A stretch of DNA of 29,468 nucleotides from Woeseiaceae bacterium (GTDB lineage: Bacteria; Pseudomonadota; Gammaproteobacteria; Steroidobacterales; Woeseiaceae). Shown one piece after another: positions 1,337 to 13,093 of the stretch (position 1 is the stretch's first letter; every line of letters starts with the position of its first letter). The notes below the pieces were generated by a model. It had not been told where the DNA came from, did no database searches, and worked only from the letters and a program-made list of their open reading frames with translations. The translations under genes were made by a program, and so were the position numbers. The stretch covers positions 1-29,468 of the forward strand of contig JBFHXQ010000001.1 in assembly GCA_041598895.1 (NCBI GenBank), in the 5' to 3' direction.

Positions 1337-2428
1337 CTAACCGGCTAGCGCCTCTTCGAGCTCCTGTGCGAGCTCGCCGGGTTCCGGCAGATTGCTCAGG
1401 TAATGCTTGCCGTTGACCTGCTCCTGAAATTCTTTCGCCTTTCTGCGCGGATTGTAGAACTGCTTGTACCAGATGCGGCCGCGGCGGAAGCTGCGCTCGA
1501 CCGGCAGCGCCATGATACTGAGTGCGGGCCGCTTGTTGCTCCAGATGTCGAAATCCTGTGCGAATGCCGCCAGCGCGCCTTCCTGGGCCAGTTTGGCATT
1601 TGCGATGTCTTCCTCTGTCGGCGGAGTGTTCGGTGCAAGTGCCAGGTTGTTGTGCCAGGCCTTGACGAGCCCGTCCTCGATCGGCGTATGAAAAATAAAT
1701 TCATAACCGTTCGCCTCCCCGAAGCGCTGCCGTGAAATCAGCATGCCCGGACCTGTGTACCAGGTCGACGTCGTCAGGTACGCGTTGTACATGCGATGGA
1801 AGCCGCCCTGGCGCTGGTAATACACGTGTCCATCGTATTCGTTCTCGAAGTATTCGCACGGCGCGCCGTGGGTCGGTCCGAGGTGGTGGGCATCGGCCAT
1901 GTTGTCGATGATTTCCTGCGGGTGAATCGGTATCTCGCCGAGATGGTCGTAGCTGCCGTTAACCCACTGGGGGTCGTCCCAGGCATCGAGATCCGGCGCG
2001 GCGTACTCGGGCTCGCCGTCCTCGGGATCGTGCCACATCAAGATCGCGCCGAGCTGCTCGACCACGTTATACGAGCGAAGCTTCGCGCCTTTCGGGCACG
2101 GTCCGTCGAAGTACGGTATGTCATCGCAGCGGCCATCCGGTGCGTAGCGCCAGCCATGATACGGACAGCGGATCGAGTCGCCTTCGATCTGCTCATTGTT
2201 CAGCACGATCGATGCGCTCGGACTCGCCGCAAGGTGCGTGCCCATGTGCGCGCAGTACGCGTCGAGCAACACGACCTTGCCGCTCTCGCCGCGATACAGC
2301 GCCATGTCCTTGCCGAAAAAGCGCACGGGAAGCGGGCCGTTATCGAGTTCCTTCGCCTCTGCGATCATGAACCAGCCTCTCGGGAACATGAACTCGCCGA
2401 GATCGAAGTCTTCTGCTTTTGCCTTCAA
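1337..2428 (-). CDS. kshA: Rieske non-heme iron monooxygenase, 3-ketosteroid 9-alpha-hydroxylase oxygenase (KshA)-like, 363 aa
   Basis: Rieske ligands CAH...CPYH; mononuclear Fe motif DNMADAHHLGPTH; FAQDFDIWSNK and WYKQFY match KshA C-terminal motifs; FPRGWF N-terminus. Start moved to TTG 2428, which has GGAGGA 8 nt upstream. Confidence 0.8.
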   Translation of the reverse strand: MKAKAEDFDLGEFMFPRGWFMIAEAKELDNGPLPVRFFGKDMALYRGESGKVVLLDAYCAHMGTHLAASPSASIVLNNEQIEGDSIRCPYHGWRYAPDGRCDDIPYFDGPCPKGAKLRSYNVVEQLGAILMWHDPEDGEPEYAAPDLDAWDDPQWVNGSYDHLGEIPIHPQEIIDNMADAHHLGPTHGAPCEYFENEYDGHVYYQRQGGFHRMYNAYLTTSTWYTGPGMLISRQRFGEANGYEFIFHTPIEDGLVKAWHNNLALAPNTPPTEEDIANAKLAQEGALAAFAQDFDIWSNKRPALSIMALPVERSFRRGRIWYKQFYNPRRKAKEFQEQVNGKHYLSNLPEPGELAQELEEALAG

Positions 2429-2486
2429 GGTTTGAGTCCTCCAGCGTGTGCACTCGCTGCGCGGCGGGCATCGTCGCACAGTGTCA

Positions 2487-3188
2487 TCATCGGTCGCCGA
2501 CGTCGCGCGCGCGTGCCGCTATACCGTCAACCGTGTAGTTGACGAAGTACCTGAAATTCGTGTCAAGATCGAAGTCGTCATCATCGAGGCTCAGCGCACT
2601 GAGCGTCGGCAGCTCCTCGGTACCGGTTTCGAGCTTTTCTGCGAGGCGCGCATACGTCGGAGTCGAACCACCCGCAATTTCCGCACGCGTCTGCAGTTCC
2701 TGGTGCACGTAGCCGACGACGTTGTTGACGAGGAAGGCGTGCGCGCGCGCCGCTTCGCGCGGGCTGAAGCCGAACTCGACGAGTATTTTGGTTGCTTTTT
2801 CGAGGCGCTCGAAATCGGGGTCGAGTGCGGCCTGCGCGTATTGCAGCAGCTCGGGATTGTCGAGGAACGCGCCGCGGTAGAAGCCGGCCAGTTCGACGAG
2901 CCAGTCCCGCCAGGACAGACCGGCCGGCGACGGCATGTCGCCGACGCGCTCGGAGAGATAGGACGCGTAAATGCGCCGCAGGCCGTCGAGCCCGCCCGTG
3001 TGGCGATAGAGCGTCGTCACGTTGACGTCGAGCTCGCCGGCCACGGCGTGCATGCTCACCTCGCCGCTTTTGCCAACCCGACGCACCGCCTGCTCGATCA
3101 GCTCCCCGTTGATAGACGGCGTGCGCCCGCGTCGCGACGTGCGGCCGACGTGGGCCGTCGACGCTGCCGATTGTCTGCTCTTCGCCAT
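2487..3188 (-). CDS. TetR/AcrR family transcriptional regulator with TetR_C-type ligand domain, 233 aa
   Basis: HTH VSMHAVAGELDVNVTTLYRH; C-terminal WRDWLVELAGFYRGAFLDNP...GFSPREAARAHAFLVNNVVG pattern; start set at ATG 3188, downstream of the palindrome and -10 box. Confidence 0.88.
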   Translation of the reverse strand: MAKSRQSAASTAHVGRTSRRGRTPSINGELIEQAVRRVGKSGEVSMHAVAGELDVNVTTLYRHTGGLDGLRRIYASYLSERVGDMPSPAGLSWRDWLVELAGFYRGAFLDNPELLQYAQAALDPDFERLEKATKILVEFGFSPREAARAHAFLVNNVVGYVHQELQTRAEIAGGSTPTYARLAEKLETGTEELPTLSALSLDDDDFDLDTNFRYFVNYTVDGIAARARDVGDR

Positions 3189-3206
3189 CGGCGAGACCTG
3201 CGTGAA

Positions 3207-3235
3207 CCAATTTTGCATTATAAATGCAAAATTGG
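3207..3235. promoter_or_regulatory. Operator palindrome 1 (CCAATTTTGCATT-ATA-AATGCAAAATTGG) overlapping a minus-strand TATAAT for tetR-kshA
   Basis: Perfect 13-bp inverted repeat; ATTATA at 3217-3222 is TATAAT on the minus strand; 19 nt upstream of the tetR start. Confidence 0.85.
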
Positions 3236-3258
3236 CGGTCGAACAGGTTCGTGCCGGA

Positions 3259-4287
3259 TCAGGGGCTGTCCGTTGCATCGGTCTGCCAGAAATCGGGGAC
3301 GCCTGGATCGGAGCGTTTGATGAAGCGCTGCAGGAAGCGGATGACGTCCGCAATTTCCGTCTCCGGGAAATCGGCGAGCAGCTGTTCCTCGATTGCTTTC
3401 GATCGCGCAAGCAGCGAGAGGTACAGCTCGCGCCCCTTGACCGTGATCGCGTACTGCATGCCGTCGTGCGTTTCGGTCACGAGACCTTTGCCGATCATCG
3501 CATGCAGCGTCCCGTGATCCGGTGCGCGTCCCGTATGCTCGAGACGCACCTGCAGTGCCTGCAGCGACATCGGCCCGCCAAGGCCGAGCAACGTCAGCGT
3601 CAGATATTCGCTCTCATCGATATCCGCGCTCGCCCACGCATCGCGCAGCGGTGCGGATGCCTGAAAATGGGCCCGCGCAATCAGGTAGAGAAAGAAGTTT
3701 TCGGTGAACGTCCCGTGCGCAACATCGACGCCGGCGCCCGGCTTTTCACCTTTGCCCTTACTCTTCGCCAATGCGTAGCTACCACCGTGAAAAACCAGCG
3801 GCGGCTCGTCGGTCTTCTCGTAGTCCAGGACCTGGCCCACGAAGATCAGGTGATCACCGCCCTCGTAGGTGTGCGTCGTCCGGCACTGAAAGCGAGCGGC
3901 ATACGCCGGCAGCAGCGGAACGTTGCCGACGCCGCGCGTCCACTCCTGACCCGCGAACTTGTCGCTGCCCGCACTTGCAAAGCGCGCGGACAGCGCCTCC
4001 TGCGACGCGCCGAGGACGTGCACACAGAAATGGCCCGACTCCCGAAACGCGGCCATCGACCGGGCACTCTTCGCGAGGGACCAGAGCACTAGCGGCGGGT
4101 CCAGCGACACCGAATTGAAGCTCGATGCCGTTACGCCCACCGGTTCTCCATCGGCGTCCAGCGTCGTAATGACCGTGACGCCCGTGGCAAACTGGCCGAG
4201 CGCCTGGCGAAAATCATGGGCATCTCGGGCGTTGATCGGGGCCTCCGGGGCGGCTTCGCTGAGGGGAGCAGCAAAGCTCACCCTCAT
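3259..4287 (-). CDS. Flavin reductase (HpaC/HsaB-like) fused to a C-terminal MarR-like winged-helix domain, 342 aa
   Basis: FRQALGQFATGVTVIT, TASSFNSVSLDPPLVLWS, EGGDHLIFVG and PPLVFHGGSY flavin-reductase motifs; the last 150 aa (3259-3708) are MarR-like (YLIARAH...KGLV...YAITVKGRELY). Start set at ATG 4287. Confidence 0.88.
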   Translation of the reverse strand: MRVSFAAPLSEAAPEAPINARDAHDFRQALGQFATGVTVITTLDADGEPVGVTASSFNSVSLDPPLVLWSLAKSARSMAAFRESGHFCVHVLGASQEALSARFASAGSDKFAGQEWTRGVGNVPLLPAYAARFQCRTTHTYEGGDHLIFVGQVLDYEKTDEPPLVFHGGSYALAKSKGKGEKPGAGVDVAHGTFTENFFLYLIARAHFQASAPLRDAWASADIDESEYLTLTLLGLGGPMSLQALQVRLEHTGRAPDHGTLHAMIGKGLVTETHDGMQYAITVKGRELYLSLLARSKAIEEQLLADFPETEIADVIRFLQRFIKRSDPGVPDFWQTDATDSP

Positions 4288-4388
4288 CGAAAAAACCGTG
4301 AATTTGATACGAATTAGGCTAGTTAGTTTGATATTATAGCCGATTATATACAATTTCTAGCTATTATTTTACGAATTTGGGAAAAAAC
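4288..4388. promoter_or_regulatory. AT-rich divergent promoter region
   Basis: About 29% GC by hand count; TTTGATA direct repeat (4303-4309 and 4328-4334); imperfect inverted repeat GGCTA(4317-4321)-N15-TAGCC(4337-4341). Confidence 0.55.
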
Positions 4389-5150
4389 GTGAGCGACCTT
4401 TCGAATCGCACAATCGTCGTCACCGGCGGCAGCCGCGGCCTGGGCCGCGGCATCGCGGAGGGTTTCCTCGCGGCCGGCGCCGCGGTCATCGTCTGCGGCC
4501 GAACCGAGCCCGACACCCTGCCGAGCGCCGGAAACGCATCCGCGCTGTTCGTCAAAGCCGACGTCCGGGATGCCGCCGACAGCCAGGCGCTGATCGATCA
4601 CGCGGTAAAGGCGACCGGCCGCCTCGACGTATTGGTGAACAATGCCGGCGGCAGTCCGGAGGTAGCGGCAGAAGACGCGTCACCCCGATTTACCGACGCG
4701 ATCATTCGCCTGAACCTGACGGCGCCCGCGGTGCTCAGTCAGCAGGCGTACGCGGCGCTGCGGGACAGCGGCGGCGGGTCGATCATCAACATCGCGAGCG
4801 TATCGGCGATTCGCCCGTCACCCGGCACGGCGGCCTACGGCGCGGCGAAAGCGGGACTCGTCAACCTGACTCGCTCCCTGGCACAGGAGTGGGCTCCCGA
4901 GGTGCGCGTCAACGTCATCATCGCCGGCCTGGCACGCACCGAGGCTGCCGGCGCTCACTACGGCGGCGAAGAGGGCATCCGCAATATTGAAAAGCGCATG
5001 CCGATGCGGCGCATGGCCACGCCGGGCGACATTGCCCGCGCGTGTCTGTACCTCGCGTCCGCCGAAGCCGCGTACGTGTCCGGCGCAACGCTCGAGGTAC
5101 ATGGCGGCGGCGAACCGCCCGCATTTCTCAGTCTGCAACACGATGCCTGA
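4389..5150 (+). CDS. Classical SDR oxidoreductase resembling the mycobacterial Rv3549c-type steroid-cluster SDR, about 253 aa
   Basis: TGGSRGLG, NNAGGSP, RPSPGTAAYGAAK, EWAPEVRVN and YVSGATLEVHGGGEPP match my recollection of Rv3549c. GTG 4389 preferred over TTG 4377. Confidence 0.88.
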   Translation: MSDLSNRTIVVTGGSRGLGRGIAEGFLAAGAAVIVCGRTEPDTLPSAGNASALFVKADVRDAADSQALIDHAVKATGRLDVLVNNAGGSPEVAAEDASPRFTDAIIRLNLTAPAVLSQQAYAALRDSGGGSIINIASVSAIRPSPGTAAYGAAKAGLVNLTRSLAQEWAPEVRVNVIIAGLARTEAAGAHYGGEEGIRNIEKRMPMRRMATPGDIARACLYLASAEAAYVSGATLEVHGGGEPPAFLSLQHDA

Positions 5151-5598
5151 CGCCGAGGCACCGGATCGCACGCGCATCCCCGACGGGTTCGAGCGGGTTA
5201 CGACGCACTCGGGATTCGGCCGCTACGTCGGCCCGTATCACATGGCCAGCGTGTCCGACGACGATGGCCATGTCGAATACTGGACGGGCCTCAAAGTCGA
5301 TGAGCGGCATGCTGGGCGCAACAGGGGCGAATACGGCCACGGCGGCATTCTTATGGTGCTGCTCGACGAAGTCATGGGCCGTGCAGCATCGCGATCGGTC
5401 GGCAAGGTATGCGTCACGGTGTCGATGCAGACGAATTTCTGCGCGCCGTTTTTCGACGGCGACTTCCTGCGCGCGACTGCCGACGTGCAGCGCAAGGGCC
5501 GCAGCCTGGTGTTCGTCGACGGCAAAGTGCTGTGCGGCGATTCACTGATCGGCACGGCGTCCGGCGTATGGATGAACAGCGGCCAGCCGCTGCCCTAG
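5143..5598 (+). CDS. PaaI-family hotdog thioesterase, 151 aa
   Basis: HGGILMVLLDEVMG motif and VTVSMQTNFCAP...RKGRSLVFVDG; ATG 5143 overlaps the SDR stop (ATGCCTGA), suggesting translational coupling. Confidence 0.85.
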   Translation: MPDAEAPDRTRIPDGFERVTTHSGFGRYVGPYHMASVSDDDGHVEYWTGLKVDERHAGRNRGEYGHGGILMVLLDEVMGRAASRSVGKVCVTVSMQTNFCAPFFDGDFLRATADVQRKGRSLVFVDGKVLCGDSLIGTASGVWMNSGQPLP

Positions 5599-5645
5599 AT
5601 CCCGGGAAAAATTTCGAATCGTCGCACGCGTCCGGGTGGGTCTCG

Positions 5646-6428
5646 CTACTTGAGCACCGCGGGCACGTGCAGTTCCGCGAGCTTGCCGCCGTCTACCGGC
5701 AGCTCGGCGCCCGTTATGAAACTCGCCTCGTCGCTCGCGAGAAAGAGTATCGCGGCGGCGAGCTCTTCGGGGCGGCCGCTGCGCTGCATCGGAATCGCCG
5801 CCTCGAGCGTCGCTAGGATTTCGGCATCGCCCTGCGCCGCTGCCTGATTGGCCGGCGTGTCGACAGACCCCGGGATCACCGTGTTGATGCGCACGTTATG
5901 GGCCGCCGCTTCCATTGCAGCGCAGCTCGTGAATCGGGTCAGCGCCGCCTTCGCGGCCGAATAGCCTGCAACGCCCTTCGCGGCGCGCGAGCCGCAGGAC
6001 GACGACACGTTCACGATTGCACCATTGCCTTGTTTGATCATGATCTTCATCGCCTCGCGCGTGCCGACGAACGTCGCATCCGCCGTGACCGAAAAATTCT
6101 TGCGCCAGTTGTCGACGCTCATCGTGGCGATCGGTCCGTGGCGCGTGACGGCCGCGTTGTTGACGAGCACGTCCAGGCGGCCATGCGTATCGGCCGTATC
6201 GTTGATCAGCCTGGCGAACGCGTCGAGATCCGTCAGGTCGATCTGCTGCGCCGTCACCTCACCGCCCTTTGCGCGTATCGCATCGCAGGCTTCTTCGAGC
6301 TTTTCCCGGCCGCGCGCGCAAATGACGACGTGAGCCCCCTCTCGTGCGAATGCTTCGGCCGCGGCCCGCCCGATGCCGTAGCTGCTACCTGTGACGATAA
6401 CGACCCTGCCTTCAAATCGTTTGTTCAT
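5646..6428 (-). CDS. Classical SDR oxidoreductase, 260 aa
   Basis: TGSSYGIG, LVNNAA, YSAAK and FITGAELPVDGG motifs; ATGA overlap with the stop of the upstream kstD-like gene. Confidence 0.92.
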   Translation of the reverse strand: MNKRFEGRVVIVTGSSYGIGRAAAEAFAREGAHVVICARGREKLEEACDAIRAKGGEVTAQQIDLTDLDAFARLINDTADTHGRLDVLVNNAAVTRHGPIATMSVDNWRKNFSVTADATFVGTREAMKIMIKQGNGAIVNVSSSCGSRAAKGVAGYSAAKAALTRFTSCAAMEAAAHNVRINTVIPGSVDTPANQAAAQGDAEILATLEAAIPMQRSGRPEELAAAILFLASDEASFITGAELPVDGGKLAELHVPAVLK

Positions 6429-8101
6429 GCGTTTGCCTCTTTTAGTATGTGCCGAGCCGCGAGGTAGCCGAACGCCATTGCGGGACCGAGCGTCGCGCCG
6501 GCGCCGACGTACTTGTCGCCCATGACGGAGGCCGACGTGTTGCCGGTCGCGTACAGGCCGGCAATCGGTTTACCGGACTCGTGCAGGACGCGCGCGTGCT
6601 CGTCGGTCAGGAGCCCACCTTTCGTTCCGATGTCGCCGGGATACAGCGGCAGCGCGTAAAACGGCGCGTCCCCGATACGTGCGATGCACGGATTCGGCGT
6701 GTTGCTCGCGTCGCCGTAATACTGGTCGTAAAAACTGTCGCCGCGATGAAAATCGGTGTCGATGCCGGTTTCGGCGAAGCGGTTGTTGCGCTCGATCGTG
6801 TCGTTGAGGCCTGCGGCATCGATGCCCGCGCGCGCGGCAAGCTCGTCCAGTGTAGCCGCTTTGAGCAGCAGCTCGCGGACCTTGCGTGGCAGGAAGCGAT
6901 CCGGCGTCGCCCAGCCGGGGCCGAGCGGGCCGAAGGGATACTTCTTGCGGAACGTGGCATCGAACACGACCCAGGACGGTATCGATTCCGCGTCGTACAT
7001 CGCCTTGCCGGATTCGAGGTAGGGCAATGCCTCGTTCGCGAAGCGCCGACCCGCCTTGTTGACGATGACCAGACCGGGCAGCGAACGCTCGGCGAAGATG
7101 CCCATCGGCCGCGGCCATCCCGGCACGTGCACGACCGGTATCCACCATGCGTGCTGCATCAGGTCGGTTGCGGCGCCGAGCTCAGTAGCCGCAGCGATCG
7201 CATCGCCGGTGTTGTTTTCCTGCGATGCCGTCCAGTCCGGCGTCGTCGGCTTTGGCAGCAGGCGCTCGCGCATCGCGGCATTGTGCTCGAAGCCGCCGGC
7301 CGCGAGGATCACGCCGTGCCTCGCAGTTATCTCAACGTTGCGGCCGTCCTTTGCGACGACTGCCCCGGTGACCGTGCCGTCGCGCTCGAGCAGCCGGGTC
7401 ATCGGGCAGTCAAGCCAGAGTTCGCCGCCGAGCTCTTTCAGCGACAGGTACAGGCTGCCGATCAGCGCATTGCCCTGCGTCAGGCGGCGCGAGCGACGGT
7501 CTTTGAGTCGGCCGGGCAGATCGAGGTAATAGGCAATAACGACTTTCAGCAGCGTGAGCCGCCAGCCCGGCGCCTGCGTCAGGAACTTGCGCGCCTCGGG
7601 AATGCTCATCGTGTAACGCCCCTGCGCCATCGCACCCCGCGGCTGCTCGCGCATGCGGTACATGTCGTCCCCGAGCTTCGCACCGTTCAGCACTTTCGGT
7701 GACTGCGTACGGTAGCCCCGTTTCGCGCCGGGCTGCTCCGTGTAATAGTCGGGGTACGGTATCGCTTCGTAACTCACGTGCGTGTTCCGCTGCAGGAATT
7801 CGAGCATCTCGGGCGCCGCGTCGATGAACGCGCGAATGCGCTGATCGGACACCTGCTCACCAATCATCGTCTTCATGTACAGGTAGGCATCGTCGGCAGA
7901 ATCGTCGACGCCGAGCCGCTTCGCGTTCATGCTCGCCGGAATCCAAAGACCCCCGCCGGATATTGCCGACGTGCCGCCATAGCGGTTGCTTTTCTCGACG
8001 ACGAGTACACGCGCACCGGAGTGCGCCGCGGTCACCGCCGCCGTGAGCGCGCCGGCTCCCGAGCCGACGATCAGGACGTCCGTTGCGTAGCTGCCGGTCA
8101 C
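6425..8101 (-). CDS. kstD: FAD-dependent 3-ketosteroid Delta-1-dehydrogenase (KstD)-like oxidoreductase, 558 aa
   Basis: GSGAG FAD loop, GGTSAISGGGLWIP, YPDYY, RFANEALPY, GDIGTKGGLLTD, YVGAGATLGPAM; tyrosines are present in the three motifs that carry the catalytic Tyr residues in KstD; steroid gene context. Confidence 0.8.
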   Translation of the reverse strand: MTGSYATDVLIVGSGAGALTAAVTAAHSGARVLVVEKSNRYGGTSAISGGGLWIPASMNAKRLGVDDSADDAYLYMKTMIGEQVSDQRIRAFIDAAPEMLEFLQRNTHVSYEAIPYPDYYTEQPGAKRGYRTQSPKVLNGAKLGDDMYRMREQPRGAMAQGRYTMSIPEARKFLTQAPGWRLTLLKVVIAYYLDLPGRLKDRRSRRLTQGNALIGSLYLSLKELGGELWLDCPMTRLLERDGTVTGAVVAKDGRNVEITARHGVILAAGGFEHNAAMRERLLPKPTTPDWTASQENNTGDAIAAATELGAATDLMQHAWWIPVVHVPGWPRPMGIFAERSLPGLVIVNKAGRRFANEALPYLESGKAMYDAESIPSWVVFDATFRKKYPFGPLGPGWATPDRFLPRKVRELLLKAATLDELAARAGIDAAGLNDTIERNNRFAETGIDTDFHRGDSFYDQYYGDASNTPNPCIARIGDAPFYALPLYPGDIGTKGGLLTDEHARVLHESGKPIAGLYATGNTSASVMGDKYVGAGATLGPAMAFGYLAARHILKEANA

Positions 8102-8109
8102 GAAAGCGC

Positions 8110-9252
8110 TCAGGCGATGTTGGCGTTGAGAACCGTGCGGGCGTCGGCGCCGATCCGGTCACCGACGGCGAGCGCCGCGTCAGCGGGCGTTCCGAGGTAG
8201 CGCTCGTTGTGCTTGCCCCAGAGGAAATAGCGATGAATCGGATAGGCGATGTCCTGCCCGATACCGCCATGCAGGTGCAGGATGATGTGTGCCGCTCTGT
8301 GGCCCGCCTCGCCGACCCAGAATTTCGCAACGCGCGCCGATAACGCGGCGTCGCGTCCGTGCTCGGTGTCATCGAGCGCGCGCCAGTAGACGCCTCTCAG
8401 GGACTCGATCGCCATGTAGGCGTTCGCCGCCTGCTGCGACACCGCCTGAAATGCGCCCAACGGACGGCCGAACTGCTTGCGCTGCGACACGTACTCCGCC
8501 GTCCGTCGCAGGCCCTCGCTGAGCACGCCGACCTGCAGCGCGCCGAGCGCAATAAAGGCATTCTGTTTTTGCGCCTCGACCAGCGCGCGCGCCGCATCGC
8601 CGCTCGCAATCAGATTCGCCTCCGCCAGCTCGCAGGCCGTGAACTCGACACGGCCGGCCGGCTCGCTGCTCGTCATTCGCTGTGCCGTTACGGTAACGCC
8701 GCTCGTGTCGGCCGGGCAGTGCAGCACGACGAGTTCGCCGTTGTCCGTCGGCGCCGTCACGACGAATCCGCCAGCCGCCGGCGCATAGGGCACGACGCCG
8801 CTGACGCCGTCGAGTGTCCAGCCTGTCCCGCGGCGGGATGCAGCGAGCGCATTCGGGGCAACGACACCGGCAGACGGCCGGACGGGGCAGAGAATCAGCT
8901 CCCCTCTTATTACGCGCGGCAAGACGTCTGCCTTCAGCGCATCGTTCCCGCCGTTGGCCAGCGGCATCGCGCCCTCGACAAGCGCTGCGATGAGCGGCAC
9001 CGGAGCAACGTACCTGCCCTGCAGCTCGAGGATCAGGCACAGCTCCGAGAGCGTCATGCCGAGACCGCCGTATTCCTCGTCAACGACGAGGCCCAGCATT
9101 CCGGAATCGGCCAGCTGCCGCCAGAGCTCACCGTGCATCGGCGCTTCCGATTCATACAGCGCCTTGAGCGCATCGTCGCTGCACAAATCGGCGAACACGC
9201 GCTCGGCGGCGTCGACGATCGCCTGCTGCTCCTCGCTGATGCTGAAGTCCAT
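8110..9252 (-). CDS. fadE27: Acyl-CoA dehydrogenase, non-catalytic partner subunit of a heteromeric steroid ACAD (FadE27/ChsE5-like), 380 aa
   Basis: RKQFGRPLGAFQAV and FWVGEAGHRAAHIILHLHGGIG...YPIHRY; no NxER or MCAD-type EG catalytic Glu visible; GGAGGG RBS; directly downstream of the catalytic subunit. Confidence 0.78.
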   Translation of the reverse strand: MDFSISEEQQAIVDAAERVFADLCSDDALKALYESEAPMHGELWRQLADSGMLGLVVDEEYGGLGMTLSELCLILELQGRYVAPVPLIAALVEGAMPLANGGNDALKADVLPRVIRGELILCPVRPSAGVVAPNALAASRRGTGWTLDGVSGVVPYAPAAGGFVVTAPTDNGELVVLHCPADTSGVTVTAQRMTSSEPAGRVEFTACELAEANLIASGDAARALVEAQKQNAFIALGALQVGVLSEGLRRTAEYVSQRKQFGRPLGAFQAVSQQAANAYMAIESLRGVYWRALDDTEHGRDAALSARVAKFWVGEAGHRAAHIILHLHGGIGQDIAYPIHRYFLWGKHNERYLGTPADAALAVGDRIGADARTVLNANIA

Positions 9253-9266
9253 CGTCGGCCCTCCGC

Positions 9267-10442
9267 TCAGACGATCGTGTTCGGCATGCCGAGGCCGAAA
9301 TTTGCGACCATGCAGCGCATGACTTCCATGACGCCGCCACCGACGGTATTGACCTGGCCGCTTCGGTAGTCGCGCTCGAGATCACCGTGGAATATTGCAC
9401 CGTCGCTCGGGTACTGCACGAGCGCATCTTCGCCGACCAGGTCCAGCAGTCCGCGCAGAACCTCGATCAATTCGAGCGTGTTCTGGAACTTGACGCCCGA
9501 TGCCAGTGCGACGTCGAGATTGCCCTCTTCGATCTGCGTGGCGGTGCGCAGGTTCAAAACCTCCATCGCTTCGAGCCGGCAATACAGCTCACCGACTTGC
9601 GCTCTGACGAGCGGATCCGCGAGTGGGCCGTCGCCAGCTTTGGATTTCCCGTCGAGGAATGCGACAACGCGCCGGAACTGCTTCGCACCGACGACCGTCA
9701 TTGCCGCGAGCGCAACGCGTTCGTGATTGAGCTGCGACGTGATCAGTTTCCAGCCGCCGTTAACCTCGCCGACGACGCGGTTCAGCGGCACCCGGACGTC
9801 TTCGTAATAGGTCATCGTCGTGTCGATGTCGCCGACAGTCCTGATCGGCGCCGACGAAAATCCGGGGTCGCTCGCATCGGCAATCAGTATCGTGATGCCG
9901 TCGGAAGGCCGTTTGACGTCTTTCGAGGTCCTGACCGCGAGCCAGACGTAATCGCAGTCCTGCCCCGAGCTCGTATACAGCTTGTTGCCGTTCACGACGT
10001 AGTGATCGCCGTCGCGCACGGCCGGCATTTTCAGCGAGCCCAGGTCCGTGCCGGCACCGGCCTCCGTATAGCCAACCGCGAAGATGCACTGTCCTCGAGC
10101 GATTTTCGGCAGGAAGAACCGCTTCTGCTCGTCGGTGCCGAAGCGCATTATTGCCGGCCCGACCGTGTTGACCGTGATCAGTGGGAAAGGCGCGTGCGCC
10201 GACCAGGCCTCCTCGAACAGGATGAGCTGCTCGACGGTCGTGTACTCCTTGCCGCCGAATTCCTTCGGCCACCCGAGCGTCAGGATGCCGTCCTGGCCGA
10301 GTCGCGCGATGATCTCGCGGAATTTCGGACCGCCCTCCCGGCCGACCACCTCGGCCACGACGTCGGGCGTCATGAGCGTCTGAAAATAGTCGCGCAGCTC
10401 CAGGCGAAGCTCCCGCTGCGCGGGGCTGAATCGGGTATCCAT
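9267..10442 (-). CDS. fadE26: Acyl-CoA dehydrogenase, catalytic subunit of a heteromeric steroid ACAD (FadE26/ChsE4-like), 391 aa
   Basis: LRLELRDYFQTLMTP, GWPKEFGG, GTDEQKRFFLP, GYTEAGAGTDL, DYVWLAVRT and QLNHERVAL (catalytic Glu). Start moved to ATG 10442. Confidence 0.82.
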   Translation of the reverse strand: MDTRFSPAQRELRLELRDYFQTLMTPDVVAEVVGREGGPKFREIIARLGQDGILTLGWPKEFGGKEYTTVEQLILFEEAWSAHAPFPLITVNTVGPAIMRFGTDEQKRFFLPKIARGQCIFAVGYTEAGAGTDLGSLKMPAVRDGDHYVVNGNKLYTSSGQDCDYVWLAVRTSKDVKRPSDGITILIADASDPGFSSAPIRTVGDIDTTMTYYEDVRVPLNRVVGEVNGGWKLITSQLNHERVALAAMTVVGAKQFRRVVAFLDGKSKAGDGPLADPLVRAQVGELYCRLEAMEVLNLRTATQIEEGNLDVALASGVKFQNTLELIEVLRGLLDLVGEDALVQYPSDGAIFHGDLERDYRSGQVNTVGGGVMEVMRCMVANFGLGMPNTIV

Positions 10443-10474
10443 CGGTCGTCGAGCCTCGGGATTGACGCCAAAAA

Positions 10475-10503
10475 CGAATTTTGCAATTATAATGCAAAAT
10501 TCG
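10475..10503. promoter_or_regulatory. Operator palindrome 2 (CGAATTTTGCA-ATTATAA-TGCAAAATTCG) in the divergent ACAD / DUF35-ltp2 promoter
   Basis: Perfect 11-bp arms with a 7-nt spacer; shares AATTTTGCA-N7-TGCAAAATT with 3207-3235; TATAAT on both strands (+10488-10493, -10486-10491). Confidence 0.88.
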
Positions 10504-10518
10504 CGTGCGAAACACAAC

Positions 10519-10932
10519 ATGGGCAGCCAGACGCCAGGACGCATCCGTCCCGTCGAAAATTACGACTCGCAGCACTACTGGCAGGGTTTGCGCGACGGCA
10601 AGCTCCTTCTGCAGGCGTGCGCGGACTGCGGTGCGCTCCGGCATCCGCCGCAGCCGATGTGCGAACACTGCCAGAGCCTCGACTGGACGACCCTCGAATC
10701 CGCGTGTCGCGGCGCGATTCACAGCTATACCGTCATCTACTACCCGGAGATTCCCCCGTTCGACTACCCGAACGCGATCGTGCTCGTCGACCTCGACGAA
10801 GGCGTGCGCATCGCGTCGCAGCTCGTCAACTGCGATCCGCACGACATCGACATCGGCAAGCGCGTCGTCGCAAACATCGTCGAGGTCGAGCCGGGACTGG
10901 CGCTGCCCCTGTTCGAACTCGTGGATCACTGA
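10519..10932 (+). CDS. Stand-alone DUF35 protein (Zn-ribbon + OB fold), likely aldolase partner, 137 aa
   Basis: CADC...CEHC zinc ribbon, G-x-IHSYTVIY, VLVDLDEGVRIASQL, DIDIGKRV; stop 2 nt before the ltp2 start. Confidence 0.9.
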   Translation: MGSQTPGRIRPVENYDSQHYWQGLRDGKLLLQACADCGALRHPPQPMCEHCQSLDWTTLESACRGAIHSYTVIYYPEIPPFDYPNAIVLVDLDEGVRIASQLVNCDPHDIDIGKRVVANIVEVEPGLALPLFELVDH

Positions 10933-10934
10933 CC

Positions 10935-12116
10935 GTGTCGGCGAGCGGCCACAGGCAGGCGACGATCGTCGGCATCGGCACGACCGAGTATTCGAAGGAC
11001 TCGGGACGCACCGAGATGCGACTTGCCTGCGAGGCGGCGCTGGCAGCCGTCGAAGACGCCGGTCTCGGCGGCGCCGACGTCGACGGCATCGCGACGTTTT
11101 CGATGGACAATAATTTCGAAATAGAGGTGCACCGCCAGATCGGCGGCCGCGAGCTGCGCTACTTTTCGCGCACGGAGTACGGCGGCGGCGCCGCGCTTGG
11201 GCCATTACATCATGCCTACGGCGCGCTGGCGTCAGGTCAGTGCGAGACCGTGCTGATCTACCGGGCAATGAACGAGCGCTCGGGCCTGCGCTTCGGCGGC
11301 GGCCGGATCATGAGTATGAATGCGCTGAACCCGGACATGATCCATTTCAGCCACTATTTTCCGACCGGCTTCATGACGCCCGCGAGCTGGCTTGCAATGA
11401 GCGCGCGACGTTACATGCACCTGTATGGCGCGACGTCGGAAGACTTCGGACGCGTCGCCGTGTCGCTCAGGGATTTCGCGGCGACGAACCCGGCGGCATT
11501 CTACTACCAGCGCCCGATCACGCTCGACGACCATCAACGTTCGCGCATGATCGCGGACCCGCTGCGGCTCTTCGACTGCTGCCAGGAAAGCGACGGCGCC
11601 GTAGCCTTCGTGGTCACGACGGCGGAACGAGCCCGGGATTTGCGAACGGATGGCGTGCGGATAGCTGCCGTACGACAGTGCGCACTGTCCAGCTCACGCC
11701 AGGTCACGGCTTTCTACGGCGAGGATATTTCGCGGTTTCCCGAGTTCGACGCGATGGCCGGCGACCTCTACGCGGCGGCAGACGTCACGGCCGACGACAT
11801 AGACGTCGCGTGCCTGTACGACCACTTCACACCCTCGATTCTCCCGCAGCTCGAGTCGTTCGGCTTCTGCCCGATCGGCGAGGCGAAGGACTTCATCCGC
11901 GACGGACATATCAGCCGCGGCGGCAGGCTTCCGGTCAACACAAACGGCGGCCAGATCGGGGAGGCCTATATTCACGGCCTCAACGGCATCGTCGAGATCG
12001 TGAGACAGTTCCGCGGCGCAGCCTGCAATCAGCTGGACGCGGTCGAGCATGCGCTGGTGACCGCCGGCTCCGGGGTGCCGACCGGTGCCGCGATACTGAG
12101 CCGCCCGGGCCCGTAA
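10935..12116 (+). CDS. ltp2: Thiolase-superfamily steroid side-chain retro-aldolase (Ltp2/Sal-like), 393 aa
   Basis: IVGIGTTEYSKDSGR, YGGGAA in place of the thiolase Cys, YRAMNERSG, PLRLFDCCQESDGA, LYDHFTP and GEAYIHG (both catalytic Tyr), LVTAGSGVPT. GTG start at 10935. Confidence 0.9.
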   Translation: MSASGHRQATIVGIGTTEYSKDSGRTEMRLACEAALAAVEDAGLGGADVDGIATFSMDNNFEIEVHRQIGGRELRYFSRTEYGGGAALGPLHHAYGALASGQCETVLIYRAMNERSGLRFGGGRIMSMNALNPDMIHFSHYFPTGFMTPASWLAMSARRYMHLYGATSEDFGRVAVSLRDFAATNPAAFYYQRPITLDDHQRSRMIADPLRLFDCCQESDGAVAFVVTTAERARDLRTDGVRIAAVRQCALSSSRQVTAFYGEDISRFPEFDAMAGDLYAAADVTADDIDVACLYDHFTPSILPQLESFGFCPIGEAKDFIRDGHISRGGRLPVNTNGGQIGEAYIHGLNGIVEIVRQFRGAACNQLDAVEHALVTAGSGVPTGAAILSRPGP

Positions 12117-12127
12117 GAGGAAACGCC

Positions 12128-13093
12128 GTGCAAGCGCAGTCGCAGCCAGTACAACAGCCGCCCGCATTTCTGAGCACGCTCAGGAACGAACACCGCTATT
12201 TTCAGTCCCTGCTCGACATTTGTCGCGACCACATAGATCGTCTGGCCGCCGGTTCCGACACAGACCTCGACGTACTCGAGGATGCACTGCGTTATCTCGC
12301 AGAGTATCCGGAGGATTACCATCACCCCCGTGAAGACCTGCTGTTCGACCGGCTGCGCTCTGTCGACCGGAGCAGCGGCCCCATTCTCGACAAGCTGCTC
12401 TCCGGTCACGACACCATCCATACGGACAGTAATGACCTGCATCACCTCGTAATGCGGCTCAACAACGGGGAGACGCTGGACCGCTCGCTGCTCGCCGCAA
12501 AACTGGCGCGTTTCGTCGACGGCTACGAAACGCACATGCGCGATGAAAACGAAGTGGTCTTCACTCGCGCAGAACAAGAGCTGGATCCGGAGGACTGGGA
12601 GGACCTGGATGCGGCGCTCGAACACGTCGAGGATCCCCTGTTCGGGACCCGGGTGCGGCGCCGGTACCGGCGCCTCGCTGCGGTTCTCGAAGCCAGGCTC
12701 GGCGTCGCGCGGCGCGATCTGATCATCGCCGAATATCTGAGCCTCGGCGCCGTCGTCGATACGATGATCAAGCTGTCCGAGACCGGCATCAGTATCGGAT
12801 ACGTCGCATTCGACCGCAGCGCCAAGACCTGGCGCGAAAACCTGGCGACGACGCGCAAGGGGCTGGCGTCCGGCCGGGTAACCGATGCAGCAAAACTGCC
12901 GCTGAAGCTTCTGCACAACACGCTCGGCAACATCCGAGGCGGTTTTTCCGACTCCTCGAAGCTCCTGCGCGACGCGGTCACGGACATTCGTACACCGAAC
13001 GACATGCGCCTGGATACGCTCAAGGAGTTACTGCGGGACGAGTGGGGCAGGCGCGAGCCTCGTAAGCGGCGCTCCGCAAAGCAGAACCGGTAG
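12128..13093 (+). CDS. Hemerythrin/HHE-domain protein with a roughly 130-aa C-terminal extension, 321 aa
   Basis: H22, H65-x3-E69 (YHHPRED), H94 and H136-x3-E140 (HMRDE) metal-ligand pattern plus DPLFG; GAGG RBS 7 nt before GTG 12128; 11 nt after the ltp2 stop. Confidence 0.82.
   Translation: MQAQSQPVQQPPAFLSTLRNEHRYFQSLLDICRDHIDRLAAGSDTDLDVLEDALRYLAEYPEDYHHPREDLLFDRLRSVDRSSGPILDKLLSGHDTIHTDSNDLHHLVMRLNNGETLDRSLLAAKLARFVDGYETHMRDENEVVFTRAEQELDPEDWEDLDAALEHVEDPLFGTRVRRRYRRLAAVLEARLGVARRDLIIAEYLSLGAVVDTMIKLSETGISIGYVAFDRSAKTWRENLATTRKGLASGRVTDAAKLPLKLLHNTLGNIRGGFSDSSKLLRDAVTDIRTPNDMRLDTLKELLRDEWGRREPRKRRSAKQNR

Follow-up and report, generated by a model that had tools for sequence, protein, structure and literature searches.

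The window analysed here, 29,468 nt long, is the entire contig C1 of a metagenome-assembled genome (MAG; 2.43 Mb, 62% complete; G000 below) of an uncultured marine gammaproteobacterium (Woeseiaceae). At positions 8110-12116 it carries a four-gene steroid side-chain module, in which the two subunit genes of an acyl-CoA dehydrogenase (ACAD) diverge from a free-standing DUF35 gene and an aldolase gene. The best explanation for this module, at a probability of roughly 70%, is a C3 side-chain degradation module with a relocated hydratase, in which a free DUF35-Ltp2 pair would work with a single-chain hydratase encoded on another contig, C46. Our gene map, drawn from the open reading frame (ORF) listing, Pfam, and inspection of start codons, confirmed the four genes and the divergent order given in an original prediction made from the sequence, with corrected starts (three were refined). 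Searches of the whole assembly with the MaoC (PF01575) and crotonase (PF00378) families gave zero matches on C1, as that prediction had stated for the window. The junctions between the ACAD-alpha, DUF35, and ltp2 genes are spanned by Logan contigs from 4 runs in 3 studies at >99% identity, and the same layout occurs in locus L018 and in the metagenome contigs L120, L123, L124, and L130; the layout is therefore no assembly artefact.

The aldolase (393 aa; 10935-12116, forward strand) has a GTG start, 2 nt past the DUF35 stop. It scored 439 bits against T. curvata Ltp2 (6OK1_A), compared with 124 bits against the C5 aldolase CtSal (9MYR_A), and it passed the NCBIfam model PRK07855 (558.8 bits; cut-off 469). 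Ltp2 enzymes are distinguished by Tyr294 of a YDHF motif as the catalytic base and by Tyr344 as the catalytic acid (TcLtp2 numbering), whereas Sal enzymes have Tyr302 and an essential Cys304 in a YDCY motif, with a Gln at the Tyr344 position (PMC12329534). In the window aldolase, Tyr295 (YDHF) and Tyr345 (GEAYIHG) align to the two catalytic tyrosines of TcLtp2. Further, its GGGAA stretch at residues 83-87 is the same in the aligned part of TcLtp2 and contains no cysteine; on the model of the Gly described in CtSal, this segment is taken to be the column of the thiolase nucleophile. Among 98 aligned Ltp2 homologues, the motif is YDHF, YDAF, or YDHC and never YDCY (0/98), and a Tyr occupies the Tyr344 column in every one (98/98). 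YDAF replaces YDHF in 35 of the 98, including both Halieaceae copies, with both catalytic tyrosines kept, so that His296 of TcLtp2 is not a conserved residue. By these residues, the window aldolase is of the Ltp2 type and not of the Sal type. The Ltp2 residues, together with the score of 439 versus 124 bits, predict that it should cut the C17-C20 bond to give a 17-ketosteroid and propionyl-CoA, rather than a C22 aldehyde. The original prediction of a C5 or longer side chain with an aldehyde product does not agree with YDHF and Tyr345 in place of YDCY and Gln, and we found no Sal-like gene in the assembled genome.

The free DUF35 (137 aa; 10519-10932, forward strand) matches Pfam PF12172 (zf-ChsH2) and PF01796 (OB_ChsH2_C), and comprises (i) a Cys4 zinc ribbon with CxxC motifs at residues 34 and 48 (CADC and CEHC) and (ii) an OB fold. 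It scored 113 bits against ChsH2(DUF35) of the solved Ltp2 complex (6OK1_B) and 47.5 bits against 9MYR_B. The DUF35 zinc finger of CtShy is Cys3His1, and neither this form nor the YDCY-plus-Gln combination, which together mark the Sal/Atf1 type, is present in the window proteins. Across five carriers of the free layout, the ratio of nonsynonymous to synonymous substitution rates (dN/dS) was 0.10-0.19 for DUF35 and 0.05-0.08 for Ltp2, at a dS of about 1 or more; both genes are thus maintained under purifying selection. The match to 6OK1_B and the dN/dS of 0.10-0.19 support the earlier view of DUF35 as a dedicated aldolase subunit, here a predicted subunit of an Ltp2 aldolase.

The ACAD beta (380 aa; 8110-9252, reverse strand) contains the Pfam domains Acyl-CoA_dh_N and _1 and lacks the middle domain, whereas the alpha (391 aa; 9267-10442, reverse strand) contains the N, M, and C domains; inspection of start codons put the true alpha start at the ATG at 10442, not at 10544. 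The catalytic Glu241 resides in the alpha subunit (LNHE241R) and the beta carries an Ala at that column, which makes the pair heteromeric. The top PDB matches for both subunits are two solved steroid heterotetramers: the alpha scored 353 bits against 6WY8_B (Tcur3483) and 325 bits against 4X28_A (ChsE4), and the beta 219 bits against 6WY8_A (Tcur3481) and 177 bits against 4X28_D (ChsE5). T. curvata Tcur3481/3483 is said in a review to prefer C3 over C5 side chains. As a control we used a Comamonadaceae locus with the order MaoC-DUF35, ACAD-beta, hydratase, aldolase, ACAD-alpha, which is the order of ORF40-44 of C. testosteroni TA441, genes whose knockouts show a role in removal of the propionyl unit. 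The control alpha, at the ORF44 position, scored 383 bits against Tcur3483 and 382 bits against ChsE4, and an operon-linked Nonomuraea alpha scored 375 and 360 bits, respectively. Because the alpha of a C3-layout control scores above the window alpha (325 bits) against ChsE4, likeness to ChsE4 (FadE26) is not diagnostic of side-chain length.

Trees of alpha subunits, with clades labelled by synteny, were built from 159 rows with FastTree and from 68 rows with IQ-TREE. They placed the window alpha in a proteobacterial clade, with a support of 98 in the Shimodaira-Hasegawa-like approximate likelihood-ratio test (SH-aLRT) for the 68-row tree and a local SH-like support of 99 in the 159-row tree. 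Most alphas of this clade are encoded beside chsH/ltp2 operons, including those of Comamonadaceae with the TA441 ORF40-44 order, and the clade is sister to the operon-linked alphas of actinobacteria. The other three alpha/beta pairs of the genome (C70, C134, and C2) do not belong to it; the one on C70 clusters with a "second pair" located ~3 kb past the operon in Comamonadaceae, Shewanella, and Vibrio, which we read as the Scd1AB position from the order of locus tags in a review table. On this placement, the window ACAD would be a C3-type pair, an assignment that rests on the synteny labels. The pair had originally been described as FadE26/27-type and directed at longer side chains, and this description is not supported: the alpha lies in a clade whose members are mostly encoded beside chsH/ltp2 operons, its best solved relative is Tcur3481/3483, and its ChsE4 likeness is generic. 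Nor is the module the mosaic it was called, as it resembles an ordinary C3 set minus the hydratase genes.

To place the layout among relatives, a species-level genome scan with the window Ltp2 yielded 80 loci, whose layouts were mapped by tblastn. Seventy of these have only the canonical layout, with chsH1 directly before ltp2 and a fused MaoC-DUF35 ChsH2 of 309-354 aa. Seven more, all from Halieaceae, combine the canonical layout with a second, free DUF35-Ltp2 pair; one Myxococcota locus (L093) shows both kinds of layout; one is truncated by a contig end; and a single locus, L018 (83% identity), has the window layout alone. Overall, chsH1 immediately precedes an ltp2 in 78 of the 80. The nearest canonical relatives are Arenicella/Thiotrichales-like MAGs (72-76% Ltp2 identity), in which KstD, ACAD beta, and ACAD alpha diverge from chsH2, chsH1, and ltp2 in that order. 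The window DUF35 starts exactly at the boundary between the linker and the DUF35 domain of the ChsH2 proteins of relatives (...RIRPVENYDS...), and in both the window and L018 the DUF35 gene begins 15-17 nt past a shared palindromic site (described below), with ltp2 2 nt past DUF35. The Ltp2 tree puts the free-DUF35 clade within the canonical Arenicella-like loci, and the free-DUF35 layout is therefore derived; across this tree, the free-DUF35 state requires at least three state changes. Both chsH1 and the MaoC domain have been cut out cleanly in this lineage, at the domain boundary, so that DUF35 stands directly before ltp2.

The seven Halieaceae loci (L079, L082, L084, L085, L089, L091, and L094; ~3000-5400) contain, next to the canonical chsH2-chsH1-ltp2, a divergent ACAD-beta, the free DUF35, and the second Ltp2, which is 48-49% identical to the window Ltp2; in L091 and L094, a single-chain hydratase lies 7-8 kb downstream. 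Two further metagenome contigs of the lineage, L121 and L122, are syntenic with window positions 6425-13093 and have the hemerythrin, operator, ACAD alpha/beta, KstD, and short-chain dehydrogenase/reductase (SDR) genes in window order, with DUF35-ltp2 absent (L121:7473-7610 and L122:2476-2758); L121 retains a 46-residue C-terminal remnant of Ltp2. As L120, L122, and L124 derive from one metagenome, strains with and without the aldolase co-occur.

The original prediction placed the hydratase elsewhere in the genome and proposed a genome search for a MaoC hydratase; that search returned a protein of the right family. The sole ChsH-type sequence in the genome is encoded at C46:6172-7206 (reverse strand), a 344-aa protein without DUF35, whose PDB sequence matches are solely ChsH2-MaoC (residues 19-190) and ChsH1 (residues 229-337). 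Its N-terminal half is ChsH2-like and carries GDRNPLY, with a Tyr in place of the catalytic His, as in ChsH2, whereas its C-terminal half is ChsH1-like and carries an Asp238/His243 dyad that is invariant in 50 homologues. This is the pattern of the rule for active and inert halves of ChsH1/ChsH2 hydratases, namely an Asp/His dyad versus a His-to-Tyr change (PMC11321319). An AlphaFold (AF2) model of the protein is a double hot dog (pLDDT 89), whose halves match ChsH1 (4WNB_B) at a TMt of 0.95 with 44% identity and ChsH2 (4WNB_A) at a TMt of 0.84 with 34% identity. Solved double hot dogs of the MFE-2/PLN02864 type, the superfamily to which ChsH3 is assigned, gave zero sequence-level matches and only 12-16% identity at the level of the fold. 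PDB entry 3KHP, a suspected ChsH3, proved to be HtdY, and no ChsH3-like genes were found in eight actinobacterial loci. In a tree of concatenated N and C halves, the clade of the C46 protein falls, together with canonical ChsH1/H2 from the Arenicella-like relatives, inside a clade with an SH-aLRT of 99. NCBIfam gave no specific model for the hydratase, for DUF35, or for either ACAD subunit.

An intact, 70%-identical ortholog of the C46 hydratase is present in G001, the 3.8-Mb MAG that contains L018. In whole-genome checks, the single-chain form was found in G000, G001, G241, G242, and G244 and was not found in G002-5, G237-240, G245, and G246; four relatives that keep chsH2-chsH1 contain only the split genes. 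Hydratases among our database matches came as split genes, as MaoC-DUF35-MaoC triple fusions (38/120), and as MaoC-MaoC single chains (82/120). The triple fusions, of ~470 aa, correspond to ChsH2 and ChsH1 joined and stem from Deltaproteobacteria, Myxococcota, Binatia, and Streptomyces (P0181-P0236). Five further MaoC genes on other contigs of G000 resemble Shy (8VWR) and not ChsH1/H2. On this evidence, the C46 protein is the candidate hydratase partner of DUF35-Ltp2.

The distance between the two was estimated from G001, where a 117-kb contig (G001:C174; L111-L116) is colinear with contigs C46-C3-C1-C2-C5 of our MAG at ~73% nucleotide identity; four of these five contigs rank among the five longest of the MAG. 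The colinearity points to a steroid mega-cluster of ~100 kb, which would include the lipid-storage genes of the window, and places the hydratase ~45 kb from the module. The G001 cluster contains three ACAD pairs of the side-chain type and three hydratases, of which two are Shy-like single-MaoC proteins and one is the single-chain form, along with one FadA5-type thiolase and one Ltp2. The two Shy-like hydratases adjoin the other two side-chain ACAD pairs, and the inventory fits two thiolytic cycles and one aldolytic C3 cycle. No other ChsH1/H2-like gene was found in the 117-kb cluster, and the G001 genome shows the single-chain match only.

On C46 itself, the stretch 10035-12609 (L011) encodes a Shy-like MaoC hydratase (156 aa; 137 bits against 8VWR_A) without the DUF35 of the proteobacterial Shy; next come a steroid thiolase of the FadA5 type (601.7 bits against NCBIfam PRK07850, over the cut-off) and an SDR. 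This set suggests thiolytic C5/C8 cycles in the actinobacterial style, run with proteobacterial-type hydratases and without Sal. At 4659-6289, contig C2 (L012) carries a second free DUF35 (148 aa) and, directly downstream of it, a thiolase-like gene (395 aa, ~30% identity to Ltp2), in a block that resembles ring degradation (HsaC/D-like and IpdAB-like by gene order and N-terminal sequence) and in which a crotonase and an ACAD pair were matched in our searches. The steroid cluster looks horizontally acquired by the sub-lineage of G000 and G001, since 40 sampled genomes of the same family yielded no Ltp2 ortholog and 13 genomes of the same genus no ChsH-like hydratase, yet G001 is related to G000 genome-wide. 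Mis-binning of the steroid contigs was considered and rejected, as their GC content and tetranucleotide composition lie within about 1 standard deviation of the bin and G001 is related across the genome.

Taken as a C3 module with a relocated hydratase, these genes would carry out the last side-chain cycle, the removal of the C20-C22 propionyl unit, in three steps. First, the alpha2beta2 ACAD, with Glu241 in alpha and an inert beta, would form a 17(20) double bond in a substrate of the 3-oxo-pregnene-20-carboxyl-CoA type. A MaoC hydratase would then add water at C17; we infer that this step is supplied by the C46 single chain and that the covalent tether of hydratase to aldolase has been lost, the hydratase gene lying ~45 kb off and outside the aldolase operon. 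Finally, Ltp2, held by the free Cys4 DUF35, would use Tyr295 and Tyr345 for the retro-aldol cleavage that yields the 17-ketosteroid and propionyl-CoA. In TA441, the MaoC and DUF35 parts were expressed separately with both activities retained.

Several observations weigh against this reading. The ACAD may not depend on the aldolase, since the ACAD pair and KstD persist in L121 and L122 although DUF35-ltp2 has been lost there. The single-chain hydratase and free DUF35-Ltp2 do not always go together, as Halioglobus G244 has the single chain alongside two Ltp2 genes that are both canonical. SDR genes adjoin the single-chain gene in Halieaceae, neighbours that would be more in keeping with a thiolytic cycle than with the C3 step. 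The ACAD and hydratase trees were computed without true ChsE1/E2, ChsE4/E5, Scd1/2, and ChsH3/CasD sequences. Moreover, with the genome 62% complete, canonical chsH1/chsH2 genes could lie in the missing sequence, although G001 likewise shows none.

These points feed two of the alternatives. An unlikely one, though the strongest competitor, is that the module is a decaying remnant, in which the C3 step died after loss of its hydratase and the C46 hydratase serves a C5 or C8 cycle, in the manner of ChsH3 or CasD. Such decay would fit the further deletion of DUF35-ltp2 in L121 and L122, with its 46-residue Ltp2 remnant, and a C5 or C8 role would fit the SDR neighbours in Halieaceae, the single chain of G244 without free DUF35-Ltp2, and the fused double-MaoC hydratases without DUF35 that are known for C5 side chains. 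However, DUF35 and Ltp2 are intact with all catalytic residues and show dN/dS values of 0.05-0.19 at a dS of 1 or more across five carriers; the C46 protein is unlike the ChsH3 superfamily in both sequence and fold-level identity; and the other two side-chain ACAD pairs already have Shy-like MaoC hydratases beside them. Somewhat less probable again is that the true partner is a canonical ChsH1/ChsH2 or another MaoC protein, for example a Shy-like one, either unassembled or elsewhere in the genome, with the C46 protein irrelevant. The incompleteness of the MAG and the five further MaoC genes leave room for such a partner, but those genes resemble Shy and not ChsH1/H2, and neither the G001 cluster nor the 3.8-Mb G001 genome as a whole offers a ChsH1/H2-like gene besides the single chain. 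Very improbable, finally, is a FadE26/27-type ACAD with a DUF35-dependent aldolase that cuts a C5-or-longer chain to an aldehyde in the manner of Sal1 (S. stutzeri Chol1) or Atf1-ChsH4. This reading could draw on the Atf1-ChsH4-like operon layout of a free DUF35 beside an aldolase, a layout that there yields a C22 aldehyde, and on the 325 bits of the alpha against ChsE4, but it runs against the YDHF/Tyr345 aldolase with its far lower CtSal score, the Cys4 DUF35, the missing Sal-like gene, the tree position of the alpha in a C3-type clade, the generic nature of ChsE4 likeness, and the FadA5-type thiolase, Shy-like hydratase, and SDR on C46 that point to thiolytic C5 cleavage.

The system so reconstructed is closest to the ChsE1E2-ChsH1/ChsH2-Ltp2 kind, represented by the M. 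tuberculosis igr operon, T. curvata (6OK1), TA441 ORF40-44, and Scd2AB/Shy2/Sal2 of S. stutzeri Chol1. It shares with that kind (i) an alpha2beta2 ACAD with one catalytic subunit, (ii) a two-tyrosine Ltp2 with a DUF35 partner, (iii) a hydratase with an inert ChsH2-like half (His to Tyr) and a catalytic ChsH1-like half, and (iv) the predicted release of propionyl-CoA to leave a 17-ketosteroid. It differs in that DUF35 is a separate 137-aa gene and not the C-terminal domain of ChsH2, and in that the hot-dog halves are fused in one 344-aa chain encoded far from the aldolase. The Atf1-ChsH4 system of Mycolicibacterium neoaurum likewise pairs a free DUF35 (138 aa there) with a cysteine-less aldolase of the SCP2-thiolase fold and has its hydratase elsewhere; however, Atf1 is of the Sal type, is 56% identical to Sal1, and converts a C5 chain to a C22 aldehyde (PMC10398937), unlike the Ltp2-type enzyme of the window. 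CtSal-CtShy of Comamonas testosteroni (9MYR and 8VWR) is also a thiolase-fold retro-aldolase with a DUF35 zinc ribbon that acts on a steroid side chain, but CtSal works on the C5 side chains of bile acids, and the DUF35 there is joined to Shy's MaoC domain. The C46 protein resembles ChsH3, CasD, and CasQ of Actinobacteria in being one polypeptide with two hot-dog halves and no DUF35, whereas those proteins act on C5 chains, ChsH3 is of the PLN02864/MFE-2 type, and the C46 protein nests among operon-encoded ChsH1/H2 pairs. Tcur3481-Tcur3483 (6WY8) and ChsE4-ChsE5 (4X28) are heterotetrameric steroid ACADs like the window pair, with only moderate identity; ChsE4-ChsE5 acts on C8 side chains, whereas both tree and synteny ally the window pair with C3-type pairs. 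The novelty thus lies in the partitioning of the parts, which differs from every characterised system and is a real but modest variation on a studied one.

Between the divergent operons, within the 76-bp intergenic region, lies a perfect palindrome with 11-nt arms and a 7-nt spacer, AATTTTGCA-N7-TGCAAAATT (10475-10503). A near-identical copy, with 2 mismatches where none would be expected by chance, precedes the TetR gene (3207-3235). No further copy occurs in the window or elsewhere in the assembled genome, and a search ahead of the C46 hydratase did not find one either. The site keeps its position in L018-L025 and L120-L130, in either architecture. The palindrome is a probable TetR operator shared by the ACAD and DUF35-ltp2 operons, and the window TetR-family regulator (2487-3235, reverse strand; Pfam TetR_C_1), with the second copy upstream, probably represses both divergent promoters.

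The remaining genes of the window are arranged around the module. A glyoxalase gene is followed by KshA (1337-2479, reverse strand), the TetR gene, a flavin reductase gene, two SDR genes, and a KstD-like flavoprotein gene directly downstream of the ACAD pair (6425-8101, reverse strand; Pfam FAD_binding_2). The KstD-like 3-ketosteroid dehydrogenase scored 577 and 556 bits against NCBIfam 3-ketosteroid-delta-1-dehydrogenase models, under their cut-offs, and its gene order with ACAD beta and alpha is kept in the close relatives L018-L025 and L121-L126. Beyond DUF35 and the aldolase, a gene of the SCP2-thiolase fold, come a hemerythrin gene and a lipid-synthesis block, and the far part of the window encodes a TonB receptor, an MFS transporter, a CoA ligase, a further ACAD, and a GMC oxidoreductase.

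For annotation, these results carry two warnings: side-chain length should not be inferred from likeness to FadE26/27, and a free DUF35 beside an aldolase is not automatically Sal/Atf1-like, the type being decided by YDHF/Tyr versus YDCY/Gln. The predicted parts, namely a 137-aa DUF35, an Ltp2, and a one-chain hydratase, would also be compact components for biocatalysis. Why DUF35 staples a steroid hydratase to an aldolase is an open point, and the rationale of the native hydratase-aldolase complex was called unclear in the Sal paper (PMC12329534); this lineage appears to have made the same cut as the TA441 experiment, under purifying selection, and would offer an untethered natural system for testing hydratase-aldolase coupling. 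At about even odds, the pairing of free DUF35-Ltp2 and a single-chain ChsH2(MaoC)-ChsH1 hydratase represents an alternative organisation that evolved repeatedly and gave up the covalent tether; as part of that reading, and with the balance just as level, it would be the sole set of this kind in this marine lineage, and the aldolase genes would be a presence/absence polymorphism among co-occurring strains of one sample. If this alternative organisation is real, it would let one test in a natural setting whether the unfavourable hydration at C17 has to be pulled by tethering or channelling.

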